In this document: positions 6,635-39,344 of the stretch, one piece after another
Numbering within the stretch: position 1 is the stretch's first letter
Layout: the number at the start of each line of letters is the position of its first letter
Source: Syntrophobacterales bacterium
GTDB lineage: Bacteria > Desulfobacterota > Syntrophobacteria > BM002
Assembly: GCA_050123975.1 (NCBI GenBank)
Contig: JASFGC010000002.1
Location: 1 to 40,428, forward strand
Direction of reading: 5' to 3'
Length of the DNA: 40,428 bases
Made by a program: the position numbers and the translations under genes
Notes under the pieces: model-generated
The model's database searches: none
What the model was told of the DNA's origin: nothing
The model's input: the letters and a program-made list of their open reading frames with translations, nothing else

Positions 6635-6690
6635 GAATGTTCGGATCTAAGGCATGGACAAGATTGTGGGTCGCGCCTGATCAGGGGCTG

Positions 6691-7296
6691 CTACTTGGGT
6701 GAGGCTATGCTCCCCAGGTAGCGGCTGATGGCACCGTCATACTCATGGGTTAGCTGGAAAACCTTCTTGGCCAAGCGAAATCTGGTCTCAAGGCTGAGCT
6801 GACCTCCGCTGGCCTGCATCTCGTCAAGGATGGCGCCATAGTCTCCTGGATTCACCACTACAGCCACATCCTGATAGTTTTTTGCAGCTGCGCGGAGCAT
6901 GGTGGGTCCACCGATGTCAATGCTCTCTACGGCTTCTTCCAGGGTGCAATCCTCTCTAGCCACGGTCTTTTCAAAGGCATAAAGATTAACCACCACCATG
7001 TCGATGACCTTGAGATGGTGGGAGGCCATGGTTTTCATATGGTCTGGGTTGCTCCGTTGCGCTAGGATTCCTGCATGCACTTTGGGGTGGAGGGTCTTTA
7101 CCCGCCCATCAAGCATTTCTGGAAACCCGGTAAAGTCGGAAACGTCTTGCACCGTGACCCCACCTTCCCTGAGCATGCTGGCTGTGCCGCCGGTGGAGAG
7201 CACCTCTACTCCGAAGTCTTGGAGCTTCTGAGCGAACTCAACCAGCCCGGATTTATCAGTTACACTCAAAATTGCCCGTTGGATTTTGCGCTGCAT
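6691..7296 (-). CDS. Standalone IMP cyclohydrolase / MGS-like domain (PurH N-terminal domain only)
   Basis: [42 protein letters not shown] and [12 protein letters not shown] match the PurH N-terminal domain. The protein ends at the domain boundary. The ATG at 7296 has RBS AAAGGGGGGAG. The longer listed ORF (to 7389) runs into a repeat. Confidence 0.75.
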
Positions 7297-7311
7297 ACTC
7301 CCCCCTTTTTC

Positions 7312-7390
7312 ACTAGGCACTGCAAGGCGACGCGGTGAAACGGCGACACGGAGACGCGGCGAAAAAGCCAGAAGTTGAGAGGAACTCAAT
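7312..7390 (+). repeat. 79-nt interspersed intergenic element, copy 1 (four NNCGGNGA octamers plus AAAAAGCCAGAAGTT)
   Basis: ACTAGGCACTG...GGCGACGCGGTGAAACGGCGACACGGAGACGCGGCGAAAAAGCCAGAAGTTGAGAGGAACTCAAT. It is 69/79 identical (hand aligned) to 33707-33785. Both copies also share CTCTATGCTC further downstream (7439-7448 and 33914-33923). Confidence 0.85.
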
Positions 7391-7496
7391 TTCGAATACT
7401 TTTCTCCTCAATTCTGGATTCTGATTCCTGGCTCCTTACTCTATGCTCCATGCCCCTTAACAACGGACTACGGACGACTTACAACTGACATCCCTG

Positions 7497-8267
7497 TCAG
7501 GCCGCTTCCTCAAGTAAAAGTCTAGTGAAAATTTCGTTGGCCGCTTGGAGAGCCACTGATTGCGGCGGTAACTCCACGGTGGGCTTCCCTTCCAAATCGA
7601 ACTCGTAGATGAGATCGTCTTCAGGGATGGTGCTCACTGAGTTGGGATCGAATGTTTCCGTCTCCTTGGCGACCAATTTTGCCAGTTTGTTTCTATACTG
7701 GTTGACCACAAGGTATTTACGTCCCACTCTTATGTTGAGTTCGTCTACCAAATCATAAATCCGGCGGGCTGAAAGAATGCCTCGTCGACTGGTATCACTC
7801 ACCACCAGAAGCAAATCAATGTCTTTAGTAGTCAGTCGGCTAAAATGCTCCATCCCCGCCTCATTGTCAACAACCAGGTAGGGGTAGTTGCGCATCAACC
7901 GTTCGATGAAAGTGCTGAGCAGATTATTGGCGGCACAGTAACATCCCGGCCCTTCGGGACGACCCATGACTATGAGGTCGAATCCTTTGGCCTCTACCAG
8001 GGCCTGCTCAACCTTCATCTCCATCCACATATCCTTGGTCATCCCCACCGGGACGTCCTTCTTCATCATCTCCCTGGCATCCCCAAGTGTCTCTTCCACT
8101 TGGAGGCCAAGTACCTCGTTTAAATTTGAATTAGAATCAGCATCTACAGCCAATATGGGGCTCATGTCGTTCTCTTTAAGAAAGCGAACAAGCAGGCCGG
8201 CAAGGGTGGTCTTGCCGGTTCCGCCTTTCCCTGCCAGGGCAATAGTGTATCCTTGTTTTCTAACCAT
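7497..8267 (-). CDS. cooC: CooC/AcsF-type Ni-insertion ATPase (CO dehydrogenase maturation factor, MinD/ParA family)
   Basis: Deviant Walker A GKGGTGKTT, AVDADSNSNL, and the GPGCYCAANN CxC metal motif characteristic of CooC. Confidence 0.8.
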   Translation of the reverse strand: MVRKQGYTIALAGKGGTGKTTLAGLLVRFLKENDMSPILAVDADSNSNLNEVLGLQVEETLGDAREMMKKDVPVGMTKDMWMEMKVEQALVEAKGFDLIVMGRPEGPGCYCAANNLLSTFIERLMRNYPYLVVDNEAGMEHFSRLTTKDIDLLLVVSDTSRRGILSARRIYDLVDELNIRVGRKYLVVNQYRNKLAKLVAKETETFDPNSVSTIPEDDLIYEFDLEGKPTVELPPQSVALQAANEIFTRLLLEEAA

Positions 8268-8315
8268 TTGTAGTCCTGAGTTAATCGCCTCCCAAGGGGA
8301 GGGTCGATTAAAGTT

Positions 8316-8771
8316 TTACGCTCCTGGTCCTTTTTTCTTCGGATGGCATTCGCCACAGGTTACTGGGCCCGACTGCTTTTTATTTCTAGAGAGCTGTCGA
8401 TGGCAACCTGTGCACATCCGATGGTATGCCTGCTGCAAGGTTCGTTTAGTCGGGTCCAAGTCCGGCTTGAAGCGAAAGCCGGTCTCATTCTTATGACAGG
8501 AGGCACACTGAATGCCCTCTGCATCTTCTTCAAGTTCCGCCTCGTCCACAATGTTCTCACCACCCTTAAACAGGTGGTGACAATCGCTGCACTCGATTTC
8601 GGCATCAATATGTTGCATGTGAGGAAAGGCCACCGGTGGTCGGCTACGATCAGTGAATACCGACTGGTCATCCAATAAAATATCTTCTGGCTGAGCCTCG
8701 AGATTGACCGCCCACAAGAGGCTACCTATACCCAGAATCAGCAGGCAAACCAGAAAATGTCTCCGTATCAT
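8316..8771 (-). CDS. Periplasmic tetrahaem cytochrome c3-family protein (TmcA-like)
   Basis: Four CxxCH motifs (CSDCH, CASCH, CTGCH, CGECH). N-terminal signal-like MIRRHFLVCLLILGIGSLLWA. The ATG at 8771 is preceded by GGGGAGAGG. Confidence 0.8.
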   Translation of the reverse strand: MIRRHFLVCLLILGIGSLLWAVNLEAQPEDILLDDQSVFTDRSRPPVAFPHMQHIDAEIECSDCHHLFKGGENIVDEAELEEDAEGIQCASCHKNETGFRFKPDLDPTKRTLQQAYHRMCTGCHRQLSRNKKQSGPVTCGECHPKKKGPGA

Positions 8772-8849: not shown

Positions 8850-9050
8850 AGAAATCCGAAATTCGAATATCGAAACTGGGGCCCCGCCCGCAGGGTGGGG
8901 ACTCCGAAGGAGAAATCCGAAACAAATTCAAATTTTCAAAATCCACATGACCAAAACTTCAAAAACTTATATTTATTCGGCTTTGTTTTGAACATAAGAG
9001 AATTTGAAATTCGGATTTGTTTCGTGCTTCGGATTTAGGATTTCGAATTT
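8850..9050. repeat. AT-rich word-repeat block in the 344-bp spacer between the FeS-protein gene and the cytochrome c3 gene
   Basis: AAATCCGAAA/ATTCGAAT/ATCGAAAC octamer words lie on the left, and their complements (GAAATTCGGATTTGTTTCG, TTCGGATTTAGGATTTCGAATTT) on the right. CGAAACAAA (8918-8926) is complementary to TTTGTTTCG (9016-9024). A GC hairpin CCCCGCCC-GCA-GGGTGGGG sits at 8882-8900. Confidence 0.7.
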
Positions 9051-9115: not shown

Positions 9116-10414
9116 TTACTCCTCGTCTTCGTCTTCGTCCTTAGCTTTGAGTTCTTCCGGAATAATAAGAGCCTCCTCAAACATTTCTTTGAAAGAAAGC
9201 ACTTTGATGCCGAGGTCATACTCCTGGTTCAAGTCCCTCAGTTGATCGTAACAGTTGTGGCATGGGGTTATGCAAATGCTCGCTTCAGTAGCCCGAATTT
9301 GCTCTGCTTTCACTTTACCGGACCGCAGCCTTCTCTCCCTGAAAGGTCCGGCCATAGGGATGGCGCCTCCTCCACCGCCGCAGCAGAAGTTATATTCACC
9401 ATGGGGCTCCATCTCGACAAAATCCTCACAGAGGTATTTGATAACCTCCCGGGCATCCTTACCACAGCCACCGTTACGGCTGACATTGCAGGGATCCTGG
9501 TAGGTGCAACGCTCGTTAGCGAACACACTCTTATCCAGCTCGATCCTCCCCTGGCGGAGATACTCGGCAAAGAGGGTTACGCTGTGCACCACCTCAAACT
9601 TGTGGTCTCGTCCCAACCAAACAGGCGCTTCAAACTGAAGCGCACGCAGGGCGTGCCCTCATTCAGTTATGACAACGCGCTTCACCTCCAGCGCTTCAGC
9701 TGCGTCGCGAACCAATTGAGAGATATAGCCGGCAGCCTTGAGGTCGCCGGCAAACATGGCAAGGTTGGTGTCATCCCAACCCTTGCTGGACATGGTCCAA
9801 TCCTCCCCCGCCAGGTAAAAGACCATGGCAGCTTGGGAGATGTCCATGGGGTAGAACTTGGGCTCCCTGGCATTGACCGTATAAAGAACATTGGCTCCCT
9901 TCTTATCAATGGGAATAGTGGCACCCGGCAGTTCCTCCTGAAGCTCCTCCTCCATCCATTCAAGGGTGTCGATCCAGTCCTCCTCGCTCACCTCCATCTG
10001 ATTGCCATGTTTGTAATAACTCTCGATGGTTTTCACCAAGTTCTCGGGTACCTTGCCCTGAGAGACGCACAGACCCCGTCCGGTGCTGGTAATGGTGGCG
10101 ATATCGATACCAAAAGGACAGAACATGGTGCAGCGTCTACACATGGTGCAATCGCCATAGACAGTCCAGTAGAGGTCCTCGAGGAACTCCTCGTCTATCT
10201 TATCTTTCTTTTTGAAGGCCTCCAGGACTTTCTTGCCCTTTACAGCCGGGATCAGCTTTGGATCCTTATCATTGGCAAGGTAAAAGTGACAGGTGTCGGC
10301 ACAGAGGCCGCAATGGGCACAAATCTCCAACCACATTTTGAGCCGGGCATTGCTCTTTTCCTTTACCGACTTCTTGAAAGCTTCTGGGTTAAAGGCTGTT
10401 TCTTTGTCTCCCAT
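9116..10414 (-). CDS. HdrD/DsrK/TmcB-like iron-sulfur oxidoreductase (2x[4Fe-4S] plus CCG domain) with an in-frame TGA read as selenocysteine
   Basis: The listed ORFs 9659-10414 and 9116-9616 are in the same frame (1299 nt, 433 codons). The junction reads ..VKRVVITE-TGA(9659-9661)-GHALRALQFEAPVWLGRDHKFEVV.. Motifs include CAHCGLCADTC, CTMCRRCTMFCP, CTYQDPC, NFCCGGGGG and PCHNC. RBS AGGAGAG precedes the ATG at 10414. Confidence 0.8.
9625..9661 (-). promoter_or_regulatory. UGA(Sec) plus a candidate SECIS hairpin
   Basis: On the minus strand, UGA is followed after 15 nt by GCGCUUC (9643-9637), loop AGUUU (9636-9632), then GAAGCGC (9631-9625). This is a perfect 7-bp stem, and the loop starts 22 nt after the UGA. 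Confidence 0.55.
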
Positions 10415-31251: not shown

Positions 31252-33711
31252 ATGAGCCAACAAGAAAGCACCCAACGTATCACCATCGAAGATGAAATAA
31301 AGCATTCCTATCTAGATTATGCCATGAGCGTTATCATAGGTAGGGCCCTTCCTGATGTGCGCGATGGGCTCAAGCCGGTGCATCGACGCATACTCTACGC
31401 CATGCGGGAGTTAAATAACGACTGGAACAAGCCCTACAAGAAATCCGCCCGCATTGTCGGTGACGTAATTGGTAAGTATCATCCCCATGGCGATGCCGCA
31501 GTGTATGATGCTCTTGTACGCATGGCTCAGCATTTTTCGATGCGTCATACCTTGGTTGATGGTCAGGGAAATTTTGGTTCGGTGGATGGAGATCCACCAG
31601 CGGCCATGCGATATACTGAAGTCCGTCAGAACAAGCTAGCCCATGAGTTTCTCACCGATCTGGACAAAGAGACGGTTGATTTCACGCCAAACTACGATTC
31701 CTCCCTCGAGGAACCCGCAGTTCTGCCGACCTTGGTACCCAACCTCCTCATCAATGGGGCATCTGGAATTGCGGTCGGTATGGCCTGTAACATTCCACCC
31801 CATAATCTTACCGAGGTTGTCGATGCACTTATCGCCACTATCGATAATCCGCACATAGAGCTCGAAGAATTACTCGGAATCATTCCTGGACCAGATTTTC
31901 CAACAGCAGGTTTGATTTACGGCGCCCGAGGAATCCGTGAGGCCTATACCACAGGCAAAGGATTAATCAAGGTGCGCGCTCGAGTAGAAGTGGAAGAGGT
32001 GGATGGACAGCAGCAACGGCTTGTCATCAATGAACTGCCTTTCCAAGTCAACAAAGCTCGTCTACTGGAACGCATTGCTGAATTAATCAAAGCAAAAAAG
32101 ATTGAAGGGATCCGGGACATTCGTGATGAATCAGACCGGCAAGGAATGCGTGTGGTCATAGAGTTGAAGAGAGATGAGCATGCCGAGGTCATATTGAACA
32201 ACCTCTACAAGCAAACCAATATGGAGGCCACCTTCGGCATCAACATGCTGGCCATTGTCCACAATCGGCCTGAACTTCTTTCTCTCAAAGAAATACTGGG
32301 CCATTTCCTGGAGCATCGTCGCACTGTTGTTACGCGGCGTACAGTTTTTGAGTTGCGACGGGCAGAAGAACGGGCTCACATCCTAGAAGGATTAAAGATA
32401 GCCCTAGAAAATCTGGATGCCATCATCGAGCTCATTAAGAAGGCAGCGAACCCCAAAGAGGCCAAGGCTCAGCTGATGGTGGAATACGGACTTTCTGAAA
32501 AACAAGCTCAGGCCATCTTGGAGATGCGGTTGCAAAGACTCACCGGTCTGGAGCGCCAGCGAATACTCGAGGAACACCGCAATATTCTTGATGAGATTGC
32601 TCGTTTGAGGAAAATTCTGGCAGATGAAAGTCTGTTGATGGGCGTGGTGCGCCAAGAGCTCGTGGAACTCAAAGAAGAATATGGAGACGGCAGGCGTACG
32701 GAGATTGTCAGGGACGTTCAGGAGTTGGACCTGATAGATTACATCACGGAAGAAGACATGGTGGTCACGGTCTCCCACGCCGGCTACATTAAAAGGAGCC
32801 CGGTTCAACTCTACCGAAGCCAGCGGCGAGGTGGCAAAGGCAGATCAGGTACCAGGCCGCGTGAGGAGGATTTCGTTGAGCTTCTTTTTGTGGCTTCGAC
32901 CCATGACTACCTCCTCTTTTTCACCAATCTGGGACGTATCCATTGGTTGAAGGTGTATCAGTTGCCTGAAGCCGGACCTTTGGCGCGAGGAAAGGCAGTG
33001 GTTAACCTGCTGCAACTTCAGGAGGGGGAGCGAGTGGCCACCATACTGCCGGTGCGGGAATTTGAGACCGACAGGTACGTGGTAATGGCCACGAGAAAAG
33101 GTGTGGTAAAGAAGACCGAACTCATGGCCTATGGCAAACCACGAGCCGGCGGTATCATAGCACTGAAAATTGACGAGGATGACGAACTCATCAATGTTCG
33201 GCTCACAGATGGTCGACAACAGCTATTTTTCACTACCCGGGCGGGGAAAGCACTTCGCTGTCGTGAGGAGGAAATTCGGCCCATGGGTCGGGTGGCCCGG
33301 GGGGTCAAGGGTATGAATGTGGACGGCAGTTCCCTGGTGGGAATGGAGGTGGTGAGTGAAGAGGCTACTATTCTAACGGTGAGCGAAAATGGTTACGGCA
33401 AACGCACCCAGACCAAGGAATATCCCCTTCGTCACCGAGGAGGCAAAGGGGTGCTGAGCATGAGAACAACCGAGAGAAATGGCCCCGTGGTTGGTTTCCG
33501 GCAGGTATGGGATGGTGATGAAATCATGCTTATCACTGATCGTGGTCTTCTCATTCGAATGAAGGTTAATGAGATTTCCACAATTGGTCGGGTTACCCAG
33601 GGAGTTCGCCTCATTAACATCCCAGAAGATGAAAGAGTGGTGGATATGGCCATTGTGGCAGAGTCGGATGAGGAGTCGGTAGGGGATGAGCTGGCGGACA
33701 GTGAGGACTAG
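31252..33711 (+). CDS. gyrA: DNA gyrase subunit A
   Basis: [47 protein letters not shown], and C-terminal beta-pinwheel repeats. ATG at 31252; the listed start at 31246 is TTG. The TAG stop at 33709-33711 lies inside the repeat copy at 33707-33785. Confidence 0.92.
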
Positions 33712-33785
33712 GCACTGAGGGGCGACGCGGAGAAACGGCGAGACGGAGACGAGGCGAAAAAGCCAGAAGTTAAGAAAACCTCAAT
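33707..33785 (+). repeat. 79-nt interspersed intergenic element, copy 2
   Basis: ACTAGGCACTG...GGCGACGCGGAGAAACGGCGAGACGGAGACGAGGCGAAAAAGCCAGAAGTTAAGAAAACCTCAAT, 69/79 identical to 7312-7390. Confidence 0.85.
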
Positions 33786-33943
33786 CGTCATTTAGCATTT
33801 CGCAATCCGCATTTAACATTGAAACTCTCAGATGACATTGCCTGTAACATTTGAATACAATGCCAGATGTTAAATGATAAATGCGCAATGTGAAATGTCC
33901 CTCTGACTCGTTCCTCTATGCTCTGTGTCCTGTGCCTTTTTAA

Positions 33944-33971
33944 ATCCGCAATCCACAATCCGCAATCCGAA
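33944..33971 (+). repeat. Heptamer tandem array (ATCCRMA)x4
   Basis: ATCCGCA ATCCACA ATCCGCA ATCCGAA. Confidence 0.85.
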
Positions 33972-33984
33972 ATTACCTAAGTGT

Positions 33985-34005
33985 CTAGTTCTTAGTTCCT
34001 AGTTT
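33985..34005 (+). repeat. Heptamer tandem array (YTAGTTY)x3
   Basis: CTAGTTC TTAGTTC CTAGTTT, 11 nt upstream of the gpsA RBS. Confidence 0.8.
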
Positions 34006-34024
34006 TACGGTTCTCGGAGGATGA

Positions 34025-35109: not shown

Positions 35110-35694
35110 TCATTTGCCATCTGTCTCTCCGCGTCGCCGTCTCTCCGGGTCGCCGCGTCCTCTTCGTTGATTCCAGCCCTCATGCTTCACACTGACGCCC
35201 TCATGATATAAAAGGGCCTTCTTTAGACTAAGGCCGCTGCCGAATCCCCCTAATTTGCCCTGAGCAGCCACCACCCGGTGGCAAGGGACAAAGAGAACCA
35301 CCTTGTTGCTCCCACATGACTGACCAACTGCTCGGGCCGCCCGGGGCTTGCCAATCTCACCAGCGATCTCTCCGTAGGTGGCAACTTTGCCAGGGGGAAT
35401 CTGCCGCAGTGCCGACCACACCATGAGCTGGAAAGGGGTGCCCTGAAGATCCAAGGCATGGCTCAGACGCTTCGTTTCACCTGAGAAATACTGATCTAAA
35501 ACGTCAATGGCTGAAGCTAAAGGCTGTGCATTTTCTTGCACCACATGGTCGGGCTTTTGCCTCAACTGGGAGATGAGGCTTGAGATATCCTTGCCGTCCA
35601 GGAACTGGCATGAACAGATACCCTTTTCAGTGCCAGCCAGAAACAAGGGGCCCCAGGGGGAAGTAAGGTGGGTGTAGTAGACTGTCTTTGGCAT
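35110..35694 (-). CDS. ogt: Methylated-DNA-protein-cysteine methyltransferase (Ogt/Ada C-terminal family)
   Basis: Active site VPCHRVV and PPGKVATYGEIA. The preferred start is the ATG at 35694 (AAGGAAAACCC-ATG). The listed start at 35724 has no RBS. The last ~20 codons (..RRGRGDPERRRRGETDGK) are encoded by repeat sequence. Confidence 0.8.
   Translation of the reverse strand: MPKTVYYTHLTSPWGPLFLAGTEKGICSCQFLDGKDISSLISQLRQKPDHVVQENAQPLASAIDVLDQYFSGETKRLSHALDLQGTPFQLMVWSALRQIPPGKVATYGEIAGEIGKPRAARAVGQSCGSNKVVLFVPCHRVVAAQGKLGGFGSGLSLKKALLYHEGVSVKHEGWNQRRGRGDPERRRRGETDGK
35141..35158. repeat. Left arm of an 18-bp perfect inverted repeat flanking ogt
   Basis: TCTCCGGGTCGCCGCGTC is the exact reverse complement of 35736-35753. 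It is embedded in the octamer-word block ~35121-35165. Confidence 0.9.
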
Positions 35695-35735: not shown

Positions 35736-35753
35736 GACGCGGCGACCCGGAGA
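35736..35753. repeat. Right arm of an 18-bp perfect inverted repeat flanking ogt
   Basis: GACGCGGCGACCCGGAGA. The element continues to ~35800 (..GGCGATATCGCTGAACTCCGCGTCTCCGCC) and is related to 39264-39344. Confidence 0.9.
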
Positions 35754-35818
35754 TGGGGTGACACGGCGATATCGCTGAACTCCGCGTCTCCGCCTCGTTG
35801 CAAAAATCGTCTCAAGGC

Positions 35819-38215: not shown

Positions 38216-38445
38216 ACCACAGAGACACTGAGAGCACAGAGGGAACTATATTTTTTGCCCGATCGGGAGACGGCGATCGGGCAGAAGATTTCAGCCCTAC
38301 GGGCACAAACTAGTAACCCGGTGGCCAGATCTCAAAGGTTGAAGCCAGGCTGAAGAGCTTTCGCCGAAGGCGGAGGCTCTTTTCCCTGGCCGCCGTCTCC
38401 CGGCCAGGGAAAAAACACCCCCTCCGTGACCTCTGTGTCTCTGTG
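38216..38445. repeat. ~230-bp palindromic (MITE-like) element with 12-bp perfect termini and twin internal hairpins
   Basis: The termini CCACAGAGACAC (38216-38227) and GTGTCTCTGTGG (38434-38445) are perfect complements, and the arms align for ~65 nt. The left hairpin is GCCCGATCG-GGAGACGG-CGATCGGGC (38256-38281). The right hairpin is CCCTGGCCG-CCGTCTCC-CGGCCAGGG (38383-38408). Confidence 0.8.
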
Positions 38446-38528
38446 GTAAATCTTCGATCGGGCTTCCTTGAGCAGCTATTCTAAGAAGTAAAGTGAATAG
38501 GCGTTTTTTCTTTTTTACATGAAAAATC

Positions 38529-38600: not shown

Positions 38601-39302
38601 ATGAGCATGGAGGAAAGCACGTACGTACGTCCAACCTTTACCAAGCTGCCATTCGATAAAAAGGAACGCATTCTGGATGTGGCCATAGACGAGTTCTCAC
38701 GTTGTGGCTACGAGAAGGCCAGCATCAACAGGATGGTTGGGCGCCTCGGCATCGCTAAGGGTTCCATATTTCAGTACTTCGGTAGCAAGAAGAATCTCTA
38801 TTTCCACATTTTTGAACACGCTGTAGCTCTGGTGAAAAGGAGCCTAAAAAAAGTAAAGGCAGGGACCGAGGGAGAAGACTTCTTCATCCGTCTTGCCAAG
38901 TCATTGCAGGCAGGAATCTACTTTATCCGGCAGTACCCGAGGATCTATCAGATTTATCTTAAAATGCTTTTCCAGGAGGATTTTCCTTTCAGAGCCGACC
39001 TCCTCAAGACCATCCGTTTGTTCTCCATAGACTACCTGCGGCCAATAATAGAAGAGGGAGTAACCAAGGGCCAACTCAGGGAAGATCTCGATCCTGAGTT
39101 GGCAGCCTTTTTTCTTGACGCAGTGCTGGATCGCTTCCTTCAAGCTTACTGCGTGGCGTATATGGATTCAGGATTGGGGCTCTACCAGGCGGACGAAAAA
39201 GTAATCGAGGAGAGGATAGAAGATTGCATTGACATGGTACGACTGGGGATGGCCACTCAGAGTGGACGCGGAGACACGGGGAACCGGAGAAGCGGAGGGT
39301 AG
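38601..39302 (+). CDS. TetR/AcrR-family transcriptional regulator
   Basis: The HTH block ILDVAIDEFSRCGYEKASINRMVGRLGIAKGSIFQYFGSKKNLY. The ATG at 38601 has GGAGA 8 nt upstream. The listed start at 38529 coincides with the -35 box. The last ~13 codons and the stop are encoded by a repeat copy. Confidence 0.8.
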   Translation: MSMEESTYVRPTFTKLPFDKKERILDVAIDEFSRCGYEKASINRMVGRLGIAKGSIFQYFGSKKNLYFHIFEHAVALVKRSLKKVKAGTEGEDFFIRLAKSLQAGIYFIRQYPRIYQIYLKMLFQEDFPFRADLLKTIRLFSIDYLRPIIEEGVTKGQLREDLDPELAAFFLDAVLDRFLQAYCVAYMDSGLGLYQADEKVIEERIEDCIDMVRLGMATQSGRGDTGNRRSGG

Positions 39303-39344
39303 CAATATCGCCGCGGCGCCGTATCGCCGTTTCACCGCGTCGTC
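39264..39344. repeat. GC-rich octamer-word repeat copy, internally palindromic (GACGCGG...CCGCGTC)
   Basis: The reverse complement contains GACGCGGTGAAACGGCGATACGG, which matches the first 22 nt of the 7326-7390 core with one mismatch. GGCGATATTGCTACCCTCCGCTTCTCCG parallels GGCGATATCGCTGAACTCCGCGTCTCCG at ~35770-35797. Confidence 0.75.

Follow-up and report, generated by a model that had tools for sequence, protein, structure and literature searches.

The window (the whole stretch of 40,428 nt that was analyzed) carries two related stretches of 79 nt, copy 1 at 7312-7390 and copy 2 at 33707-33785, the latter between gyrA and gpsA. Both had been reported in a first-pass annotation, and their ungapped alignment was reproduced at 87% identity (69/79 positions). 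Both copies indeed have the leader ACTAGGCACTG, four units of NNCGGNGA, and the tail AAAAAGCCAGAAGTT described there, and CTCTATGCTC occurs downstream of each, at 7439-7448 and 33914-33923. The further relatives that had been listed were genuine and lie at 35126-35159 and 39308-39342 on the minus strand and at 35736-35769 and 39254-39298 on the plus strand. In both copies, the order was ACTAGGCACTG, a 6-nt linker, GA with four NNCGGNGA units, and then AAAAGCCAGAAGTT. The 79-nt limits are not natural ones; the core is the 34-nt unit GA(NNCGGNGA)x4. This four-unit architecture had been missed, together with the G-then-C inverted doublets and the link to PF05635 cassettes described below.

In copy 1, an ACTAGGC-type heptamer leader of 1.5 units (7312-7322, plus strand) precedes the octamer quartet GA(NNCGGNGA)x4 (7329-7362, plus strand), a single G-type arm that agreed with the strict pattern at 34/34 positions. 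The quartet is antisense to both neighboring genes, which are on the minus strand, and its end is separated by 32 nt from an ATG at 7296, which was chosen by eye for the gene starting at 6691; the refined start given by the gene caller was 7320. It is followed by module B (7366-7456, plus strand), consisting of a hairpin, in which 7375-7384 pairs with 7402-7411, ATTCTGG heptamers at 7411-7438, and CTCTATG heptamers at 7439-7456. These heptamers represent C-type arms from cassettes of other families. The ~145-nt block 7311-7456, to which copy 1 belongs and of which module B is the right 90 nt, keeps its limits wherever it recurs in the genus. An ACGGACT-type heptamer array (7463-7489, plus strand) ends the spacer and has a homologue in the same spacer of G011, G012, and G006.

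Copy 2 belongs to a mosaic insert of 316 nt that separates gyrA from gpsA (33699-34014, plus strand), with CGGA at 33695-33698 and again at 34015-34018. Its ACTAGGC heptamer leader (33707-33717, plus strand) has a complementary partner array, CTAGT..., at 33977-34004, and the pair forms the outer arms of the insert. The quartet (33724-33757, plus strand) is a single G-type arm in sense, 12 nt past the gyrA stop, with one fixed C mutated (CGAGG) as its one fixed-letter change from the strict pattern. A nested inverted-repeat element (33789-33897, with arms at 33789-33819 and 33867-33897) splits module B of this copy, and the AATCCGC heptamer array at 33943-33973 (plus strand) shares its unit with the C-type arm of two PF05635 cassettes on contig C249. 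In the congeners L001, L002, and L004 (~88-90% nucleotide identity over gyrA), the gyrA stop and the gpsA start share a TAATG junction, the ancestral arrangement; alignments to these loci break off at 33698/34015 and overlap by 4 nt. The insert provides the last 4 codons of gyrA and the TAG stop (33709-33711). At the same junction, L003 has a different mosaic, its inner part inverted between inverted ACTAGG arrays. No complementary octamer arm was found in the spacer of either quartet (7329-7362 or 33724-33757), and no PF05635 ORF was found in the 40,428-nt window.

Further octamer arrays were seen in the window. The quartet at 35126-35159 (minus strand) is translated as the C-terminus of an ogt-like gene and was present at the same place in L002, in decayed form. 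The array 5' of the ogt-like gene (35736-35769, plus strand) was missing in L003, and the corresponding spacer of L005 holds another octamer array. The inverted doublet at 39254-39342 consists of a G-array (39254-39298), a 9-nt loop, and a C-array (39308-39342); an interrupted hairpin of -40.7 kcal/mol was predicted for it, and its G-array is the end of a TetR-family gene. The repeat encodes the C-terminal ~12-15 residues of the TetR-family gene (39254-39302) and of the ogt-like methyltransferase gene (35110-35159). Such insertions are relevant to annotation in that they rewrite gene ends, as at the gyrA stop and the TetR-family and ogt-like C-termini, and disrupt operon junctions.

Other repeats were also observed. 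A nested inverted repeat at 38216-38447, with CACAGAG-type outer arms (38216-38243 and 38420-38447) and inner arms containing CGATCG words (38251-38288 and 38378-38415), has the look of a further hairpin element from this broad class. A palindromic element of the AAATCCGAAAT.../...ATTTCGGATTT family lies at 8918-9024 and also at ~9700-9930 of G000:C78, with relatives in the C322-orthologous spacer of G008 and G013.

Transcription of the arms was assessed from metatranscriptome contigs, which are assembled sequences without strand or end information. At copy 1, contigs from three runs were continuous with both neighboring genes; one example of 2241 nt spans 6646-8400. At copy 2, an RNA contig extends from gyrA 250 nt into the insert, and at the C322 cassette described below, RNA contigs cover the gene at approximately the depth of its neighbors. 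These results indicate that the arms are co-transcribed with neighboring genes. The suggestion of a discrete small RNA was not borne out, as the contigs were continuous with the neighboring genes and the two copies are opposite relative to transcription (copy 1 antisense and copy 2 sense to the host genes). A known RNA family was rejected because no Rfam match was found within the window.

Census, distribution, and gene context of the octamer arrays

The genome under study (G000), from an uncultured Desulfobacterota of wetland sediment, is a 3.64-Mb metagenome-assembled genome (MAG) of 441 contigs, with 50% GC and 86.6% completeness. A strict scan for at least three units detected 97 arrays in the genome and 0 in shuffled sequence, which places the similarity far beyond chance. 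A relaxed scan (one mismatch per unit, at least three units) detected 180 arrays versus 5 in reversed sequence. The core is therefore not confined to two sites, and the proposal of a noncoding interspersed repeat family with intergenic bias was upheld, since 164/180 arrays (91%) lay in spacers, which make up 23% of the genome. Exactly four units were present in 128/180 arrays. When four-unit arrays were aligned, G-A was invariant at five places, one of them directly 5' of the array, and C-G-G at four, with the remaining three letters per unit nearly free. This pattern of five GA and four CGG among nearly free letters indicates that the real unit is the 34-mer GA(NNCGGNGA)4. Doublets accounted for approximately a third of the arrays, and the others, both copies included, were single arms in mosaics of 7-8-nt arrays. 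At least 60 nt of flank was common with another copy in 72/180 arrays, and identical 34-mers were found at unrelated sites and in other species.

The strict 34-mer was detected in all genomes of the genus (18/18), with 80 copies in the genome under study and 2-23 copies in each of the others (17/17). It was found in 0/23 genomes of other genera sampled among relatives of the same family and class, and in 8/401 genomes of a phylum sample. The closest relatives (~90% nucleotide identity) hold only 8-13 strict arrays against 80 here, indicating that the array was amplified in the present lineage. In IMG/VR, ~35 unrelated high-GC (63-69%) viral-labelled contigs (L155-L234) were observed with GAC[GA]CGGN x4 arrays; they have G-then-C doublets too, and heptamer arrays lie near some of them. 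The presence of arrays and doublets in these unrelated contigs indicates that the octamer family is wider than the genus. No PF05635 ORF was found near the IMG/VR arrays in 80 loci, and the same pipeline recovered 6/6 genes in G000. The link between octamer arrays and PF05635 genes is not universal in the data examined.

The position of the arrays relative to genes was determined with gene calls from a home-made hexamer model. All CDS-touching arrays of at least four units (9/9) were in sense and lay at or across the 3' end of the gene, that is, within the last 22 nt of the CDS or overlapping the stop. Where an array adjoined a gene, it lay on the 5' side of that gene in 133 cases vs 31, regardless of gene strand. 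A total of 47 sense arrays lay within 50 nt past a stop codon. Divergent spacers were depleted (7 arrays observed vs ~19 expected by count), and 42/115 arrays in co-directional spacers were antisense.

Mosaics, doublets, and turnover

Module B alone recurs far more often than the ~145-nt block, with 111 nhmmer hits and 0 in CDS, and where it adjoins an octamer array, the two are on the same strand by 17:1. Alignment of nine fuller copies revealed an ordered stack of arrays around the octamers, with GGCACAG/GGCATAG, GCAGGCA, and ACTAGGC heptamers to the left and ATTCTGG, CTCTATG, CTGACAC, and AATCCGC arrays to the right. A same-strand ACTAGGC-type heptamer array was located upstream of 45/180 octamer arrays, in 27 cases at exactly 12 nt. 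Terminal inverted repeats made of heptamer arrays were rejected as a general rule because only 8 inverted ACTAGG pairs were found. A 24-nt hairpin insert, CCCGCGACAAGCTCGGGACAGGCA, was also seen to recur within GCAGGCA arrays (G000:C78 ~5330, C4 ~1600, and C3 ~14000).

Paired arrays had a clear polarity: 30 pairs (60 arrays) were G-array-then-C-array, versus 2 that were C-then-G. The arms were 5-229 nt apart, mostly 5-46 nt, with a mode of 22 nt. Long interrupted hairpins were predicted for the 23 doublets with a loop of at most 50 nt (median z -4.3). Fixed positions of the arms paired at 470/506, and N positions were complementary at 102/276, compared with 111 expected from shuffled partners. 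Since the arms are not complementary at N positions beyond that level, a tight stem is not what is conserved, and a perfect-stem hairpin was rejected as the selected feature. No target duplication was found at the 23 doublets examined.

We then consider the stability of the arrays over time. The site-by-site comparison used L001-L004; G013, G005, and G016, at 70-79% identity, were left out. An intact array was present here at 7/14 orthologous sites occupied in a close relative. These differences in presence and absence between congeners, together with the one insertion with a 4-bp duplication, agree with the REP/MITE-like behavior suggested in the first-pass annotation. The spacer of copy 1 was 87-275 nt long in 11 congeners and different in each. 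On C78, G042 has the same mosaic as the genome under study except for a discrete heptamer-plus-octamer module of ~85 nt, which G042 lacks. We read these observations as mobility of the family on an evolutionary time scale. The same contig holds a MITE-like element of ~128 nt that contains two hairpins (G000:C78:4098-4235; L113 599-736). This element has clean empty sites at the same locus in G042 and G043 and many copies in both genomes; one copy is nested in a module-B copy on C4.

Letters within the arrays differed in their rate of change. In six orthologous array pairs formed with close relatives, N letters differed at 25/72 positions (35%) and fixed letters at 2/132 (1.5%; p = 4e-11), and the flanking spacer differed by ~10-20%. 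These values indicate that the fixed letters and the unit number are held, while the rest outpaces the turnover of neighboring DNA. In six dispersed copies of the subfamily to which the repeat pair belongs, 8/72 free and 2/132 fixed letters differed from the consensus (p = 0.004). The simplest idea for the excess turnover at N positions is an exchange of units via slippage or conversion. Simple adenine mutagenesis was ruled out as the source of the variable positions because the A of GA is fixed.

Bracketing of PF05635 genes by complementary arrays

Six PF05635 genes were identified in G000, and all of them (6/6) lie between a purine-rich tandem array and a complementary array. Genus-wide, 24/24 assessable PF05635 genes were bracketed by complementary arrays; among the 20 further genes of congeners, 18 had both arms and 2, truncated at a contig end or through masking, had one arm each. 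The gene at C322:442-756 lies between octamer arrays of the same family as the repeat pair, in a cassette spanning C322:248-892. Its protein matched Pfam PF05635 with E = 8e-31, and it also gave a weak match to bAvd and a match to PDB 2gsc. The two C249 genes have TTCGGAT/AATCCGC arms and the C4 gene has CAGGTGT arms, and the arm units in congeners include GGCACAG, GCAGGCA, GCATAGC (the CTATGC word of the first-pass annotation), GGACAGA, CAGGAG, and GGGATCA. Most module types of the mosaics match the arms of some cassette, namely the octamer, GGCACAG, GCAGGCA, GCATAGC/CTATGC, GGACAGA, CAGGAG/CTCCTG, AATCCGC, and CAGGTGT; ACTAGGC had no match among the cassette arms checked.

In a maximum-likelihood tree, PF05635 genes with the same arm unit were sisters. 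The genes of C322, G001:C150, and G013:C20:78k formed one clade (74-75% amino acid identity, support 100/99) in which 3/3 had octamer arms, and the arm unit GANNCGGN, with GA and CGG invariant, was the same in the C322, G001:C150, and G013:C20 arms. Relatives 75% identical to the C322 protein were found only in G001 and G013, at unrelated host sites. Conversely, one host junction in four species was occupied by four different cassettes, belonging to different clades and having different arms. These results show that the arms follow the protein clade, not the host site. At the C322 site, the octamer arms were kept without the gene in G001, G016, and G009, and in G001 and G016, they enclose a GCAGGCA doublet.

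The cassettes C322, C19, and C249b (both neighbors called) and C249a (upstream neighbor called) are oriented as the host genes, and for C19, C249a, and C249b, the distance from the upstream stop codon to the start of the arm is within ~20 nt. No transposase gene was found between the arms in the pairs examined, PF05635 being the only gene seen there. The cognate gene was not found in the array-rich G007 and G012, which are incomplete MAGs, and the gene-carrying octamer cassettes numbered three in total. Within the literature searched, no paper was found with these sequences or linking PF05635 to tandem arrays.

Further cassettes were observed in congeners. PF05635 cassettes of L241, L244, L246, L256, and L250-L253 occupy two junctions of one cluster, which by eye looks like lexA-imuB-dnaE2. 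Four different cassettes were seen at the first junction in four species, and the same GGACAGA-arm cassette was kept at the second junction in four species. In L238 (G011:C307), a PF05635 gene has GGGATCA/GGGAATC-type arms, a unit type described as a quadruplex-forming repeat in Xanthomonas (Rehm et al., PMC4692102).

Origin of the repeat pair and relation to known systems

Both 79-nt stretches are probably gene-less single G-arms of a hairpin cassette family, with arms of sister families adjoining them. The copies stand without a complementary octamer arm or PF05635 gene nearby, and their membership in the cassettes rests on sequence family. In a full cassette, a small PF05635 gene is preceded by a purine/G-rich tandem array and followed by the complementary C-rich array. 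The gene belongs to the family of the 23S-rRNA intervening-sequence (IVS) protein, an Avd-like four-helix bundle, and each protein clade has its own repeat unit, one clade carrying GANNCGGN. By analogy with the IVS, the paired arms may form a stem in the transcript that is cut by RNase III. A pentameric PF05635 protein may recognize the five letters that are invariant in every 8-nt unit; the congruence of arms with clades and the pattern of conserved letters point to such recognition, which would explain why the fixed letters and the unit number persist despite turnover at the other three letters. Doublets and single arms would then be non-autonomous or decayed derivatives, and nested mosaics would accumulate through repeated insertion into older arms or next to them.

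A wider generalization is possible, although we hold it only tentatively: PF05635/Avd-like pentamers might read their own 7-8-nt arms sequence-specifically, the gene and arms together might be a widespread, undescribed self-propagating cassette, and its gene-less arms might be the STRR-type heptamer and octamer arrays of many bacterial phyla. If true, the fast turnover of free positions, the constancy of four units, and the G-then-C polarity would reflect active re-templating or exchange of units, not passive decay.

Alternative origins of the arrays were weighed against the same observations. The octamers could be a lineage-specific G-rich simple sequence repeat of the type described by Rehm et al., arising by slippage in place, with four units kept through a G-quadruplex or other strand-specific structure affecting transcription or mRNA and with an incidental association with PF05635. 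The arrays do resemble such repeats in being dispersed tandem 7-9-nt units, gene-proximal and strand-polar, with a strong four-unit preference and the positional rules that apply to GGGNATC repeats in Xanthomonas and Nostoc (PMC4692102), and unit slippage would give fast turnover at N positions. However, the tracts are only GG, and ViennaRNA with its gquad model predicted no quadruplex, a bulged GGNG quadruplex being outside that model; this result speaks against a canonical G-quadruplex. Slippage in place is also at odds with the flanks of at least 60 nt shared by 72/180 arrays, with identical 34-mers at unrelated sites and in other species, with the arrival of one copy inside a 316-nt block, and with the finding that 3/3 genes of the cognate PF05635 clade have exactly this unit as arms. 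We regard this origin as unlikely. Classical MITEs or their solo ends, mobilized in trans by a DDE transposase with the arrays as subterminal transposase-binding sites, appear more doubtful again. The 4-bp duplication at the gyrA-gpsA insert, whose ends are inverted ACTAGG/CCTAGT arrays, and the inward polarity of doublets (30:2), which fits terminal inverted repeats, speak for them, but the 23 doublets had no duplication, boundaries are variable, elements are nested, and the arm pairs examined enclosed PF05635 in every case and never a transposase gene. A simple MITE with target site duplication is disfavored by the doublet ends, at which nothing was found.

A REP/REPIN family moved by a RAYT (Y1 transposase) is very improbable. 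The inverted doublets look like REPINs, and the genome has six Y1_Tnp homologues, several of ~320-370 amino acids, but the unit is a direct tandem array and not a palindrome, and the arms mismatch at N positions. Moreover, no Y1_Tnp gene is flanked by arrays, and Y1_Tnp is common in array-free genera and missing from the array-bearing G014; RAYT/REPIN was rejected because no such gene lies beside arrays and its distribution does not track them. We give least credence to a cis-regulatory RNA, or a small RNA titrating a GGA-binding protein such as CsrA, an idea to which the purine-rich array with GGAG-like words and the small hairpin with an AGGAA loop in module B of copy 1 lend some appeal. The CsrA/RsmA link had been raised speculatively in the first-pass annotation and found no support: no PF02599 gene was found in the 86.6%-complete MAG, and the letter after GG is variable, so GGA is not a conserved core. 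Copy 2 no longer has the AGGAA hairpin, and the antisense arrays in co-directional spacers, the continuity of RNA contigs with neighboring genes, and the lack of an Rfam hit in the window further argue against a regulatory RNA.

Short intergenic tandem arrays of 7-8-nt units (STRR and related) have been known since ~1990, with neither an origin nor a function assigned to them. The PF05635 family is large, and to our knowledge, no function has been assigned to its proteins outside diversity-generating retroelements (DGRs). In this genus, the intergenic tandem arrays and the PF05635 genes are tied together, which provides testable hypotheses on protein-arm binding, RNase III processing, and the copying mechanism. 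The repeat is real and abundant, a variant of IVS-type elements and of STRR/Rehm-type repeats, and its arm-gene link was not found described.

Complementary sequences border the IVSs of 23S rRNA, which code for the pentameric protein S23p and are removed by RNase III (PMC4990558). Avd, an accessory protein of DGRs, is a homologue of PF05635 (PMC10053308). Both the IVSs with an S23p ORF, as in Coxiella burnetii and Leptospira (PMC4990558), and the cassettes are sporadic, suggesting a selfish element. In contrast to IVSs, which are located in helix 9/25/45 of 23S rRNA (Ralph & McClelland; Warrier 2016), the cassettes are not in 23S helices; every copy examined was located either between protein-coding genes or at the end of one. 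The cassettes further differ in that they are bordered by tandemly repeated 7-8-nt units with a strict G-then-C polarity and that gene-less doublets and single arms here outnumber gene-carrying copies by ~100:1. Excision by RNase III belongs to the IVS and, by analogy, may extend to the cassettes.

Rehm et al. 2015 (PMC4692102) described the G-rich heptamers GGGAATC and GGGGAYT in Xanthomonas and Nostoc and reported no link to mobile elements or PF05635. Those repeats and the present arrays have units longer than 6 nt, are dispersed and intergenic, and prefer four units. Both lie near the 5' side of genes on either strand, are rare between divergent genes, are transcribed, and are in sense behind stop codons, and one cassette of a congener (L238) has GGGATCA-type arms. 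The present unit differs from the Rehm repeats in being an octamer whose G tracts do not exceed GG and in which three positions are free; no quadruplex was predicted for it.

Elhai and colleagues reportedly described in 2008 small dispersed repeats (SDR) nested within the STRR heptamers of cyanobacteria. As in STRR/SDR, the spacers here are filled with short tandem arrays belonging to several families, and the elements are nested and mosaic. Tiny hairpin inserts are nested in the arrays of both Nostoc and this genome, here the 24-nt CCCGCGACAAGCTCGGG... in GCAGGCA arrays. The present system differs in its host phylum (Desulfobacterota), in its units, and in the tie of its arrays to a specific gene family. 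The arrays also share with the REP/BIME and REPIN-RAYT systems of Proteobacteria an extragenic, gene-end location, mosaic clusters, inverted doublets, and co-transcription; in place of a palindromic REP unit and a RAYT association, they have tandem arms with free positions.
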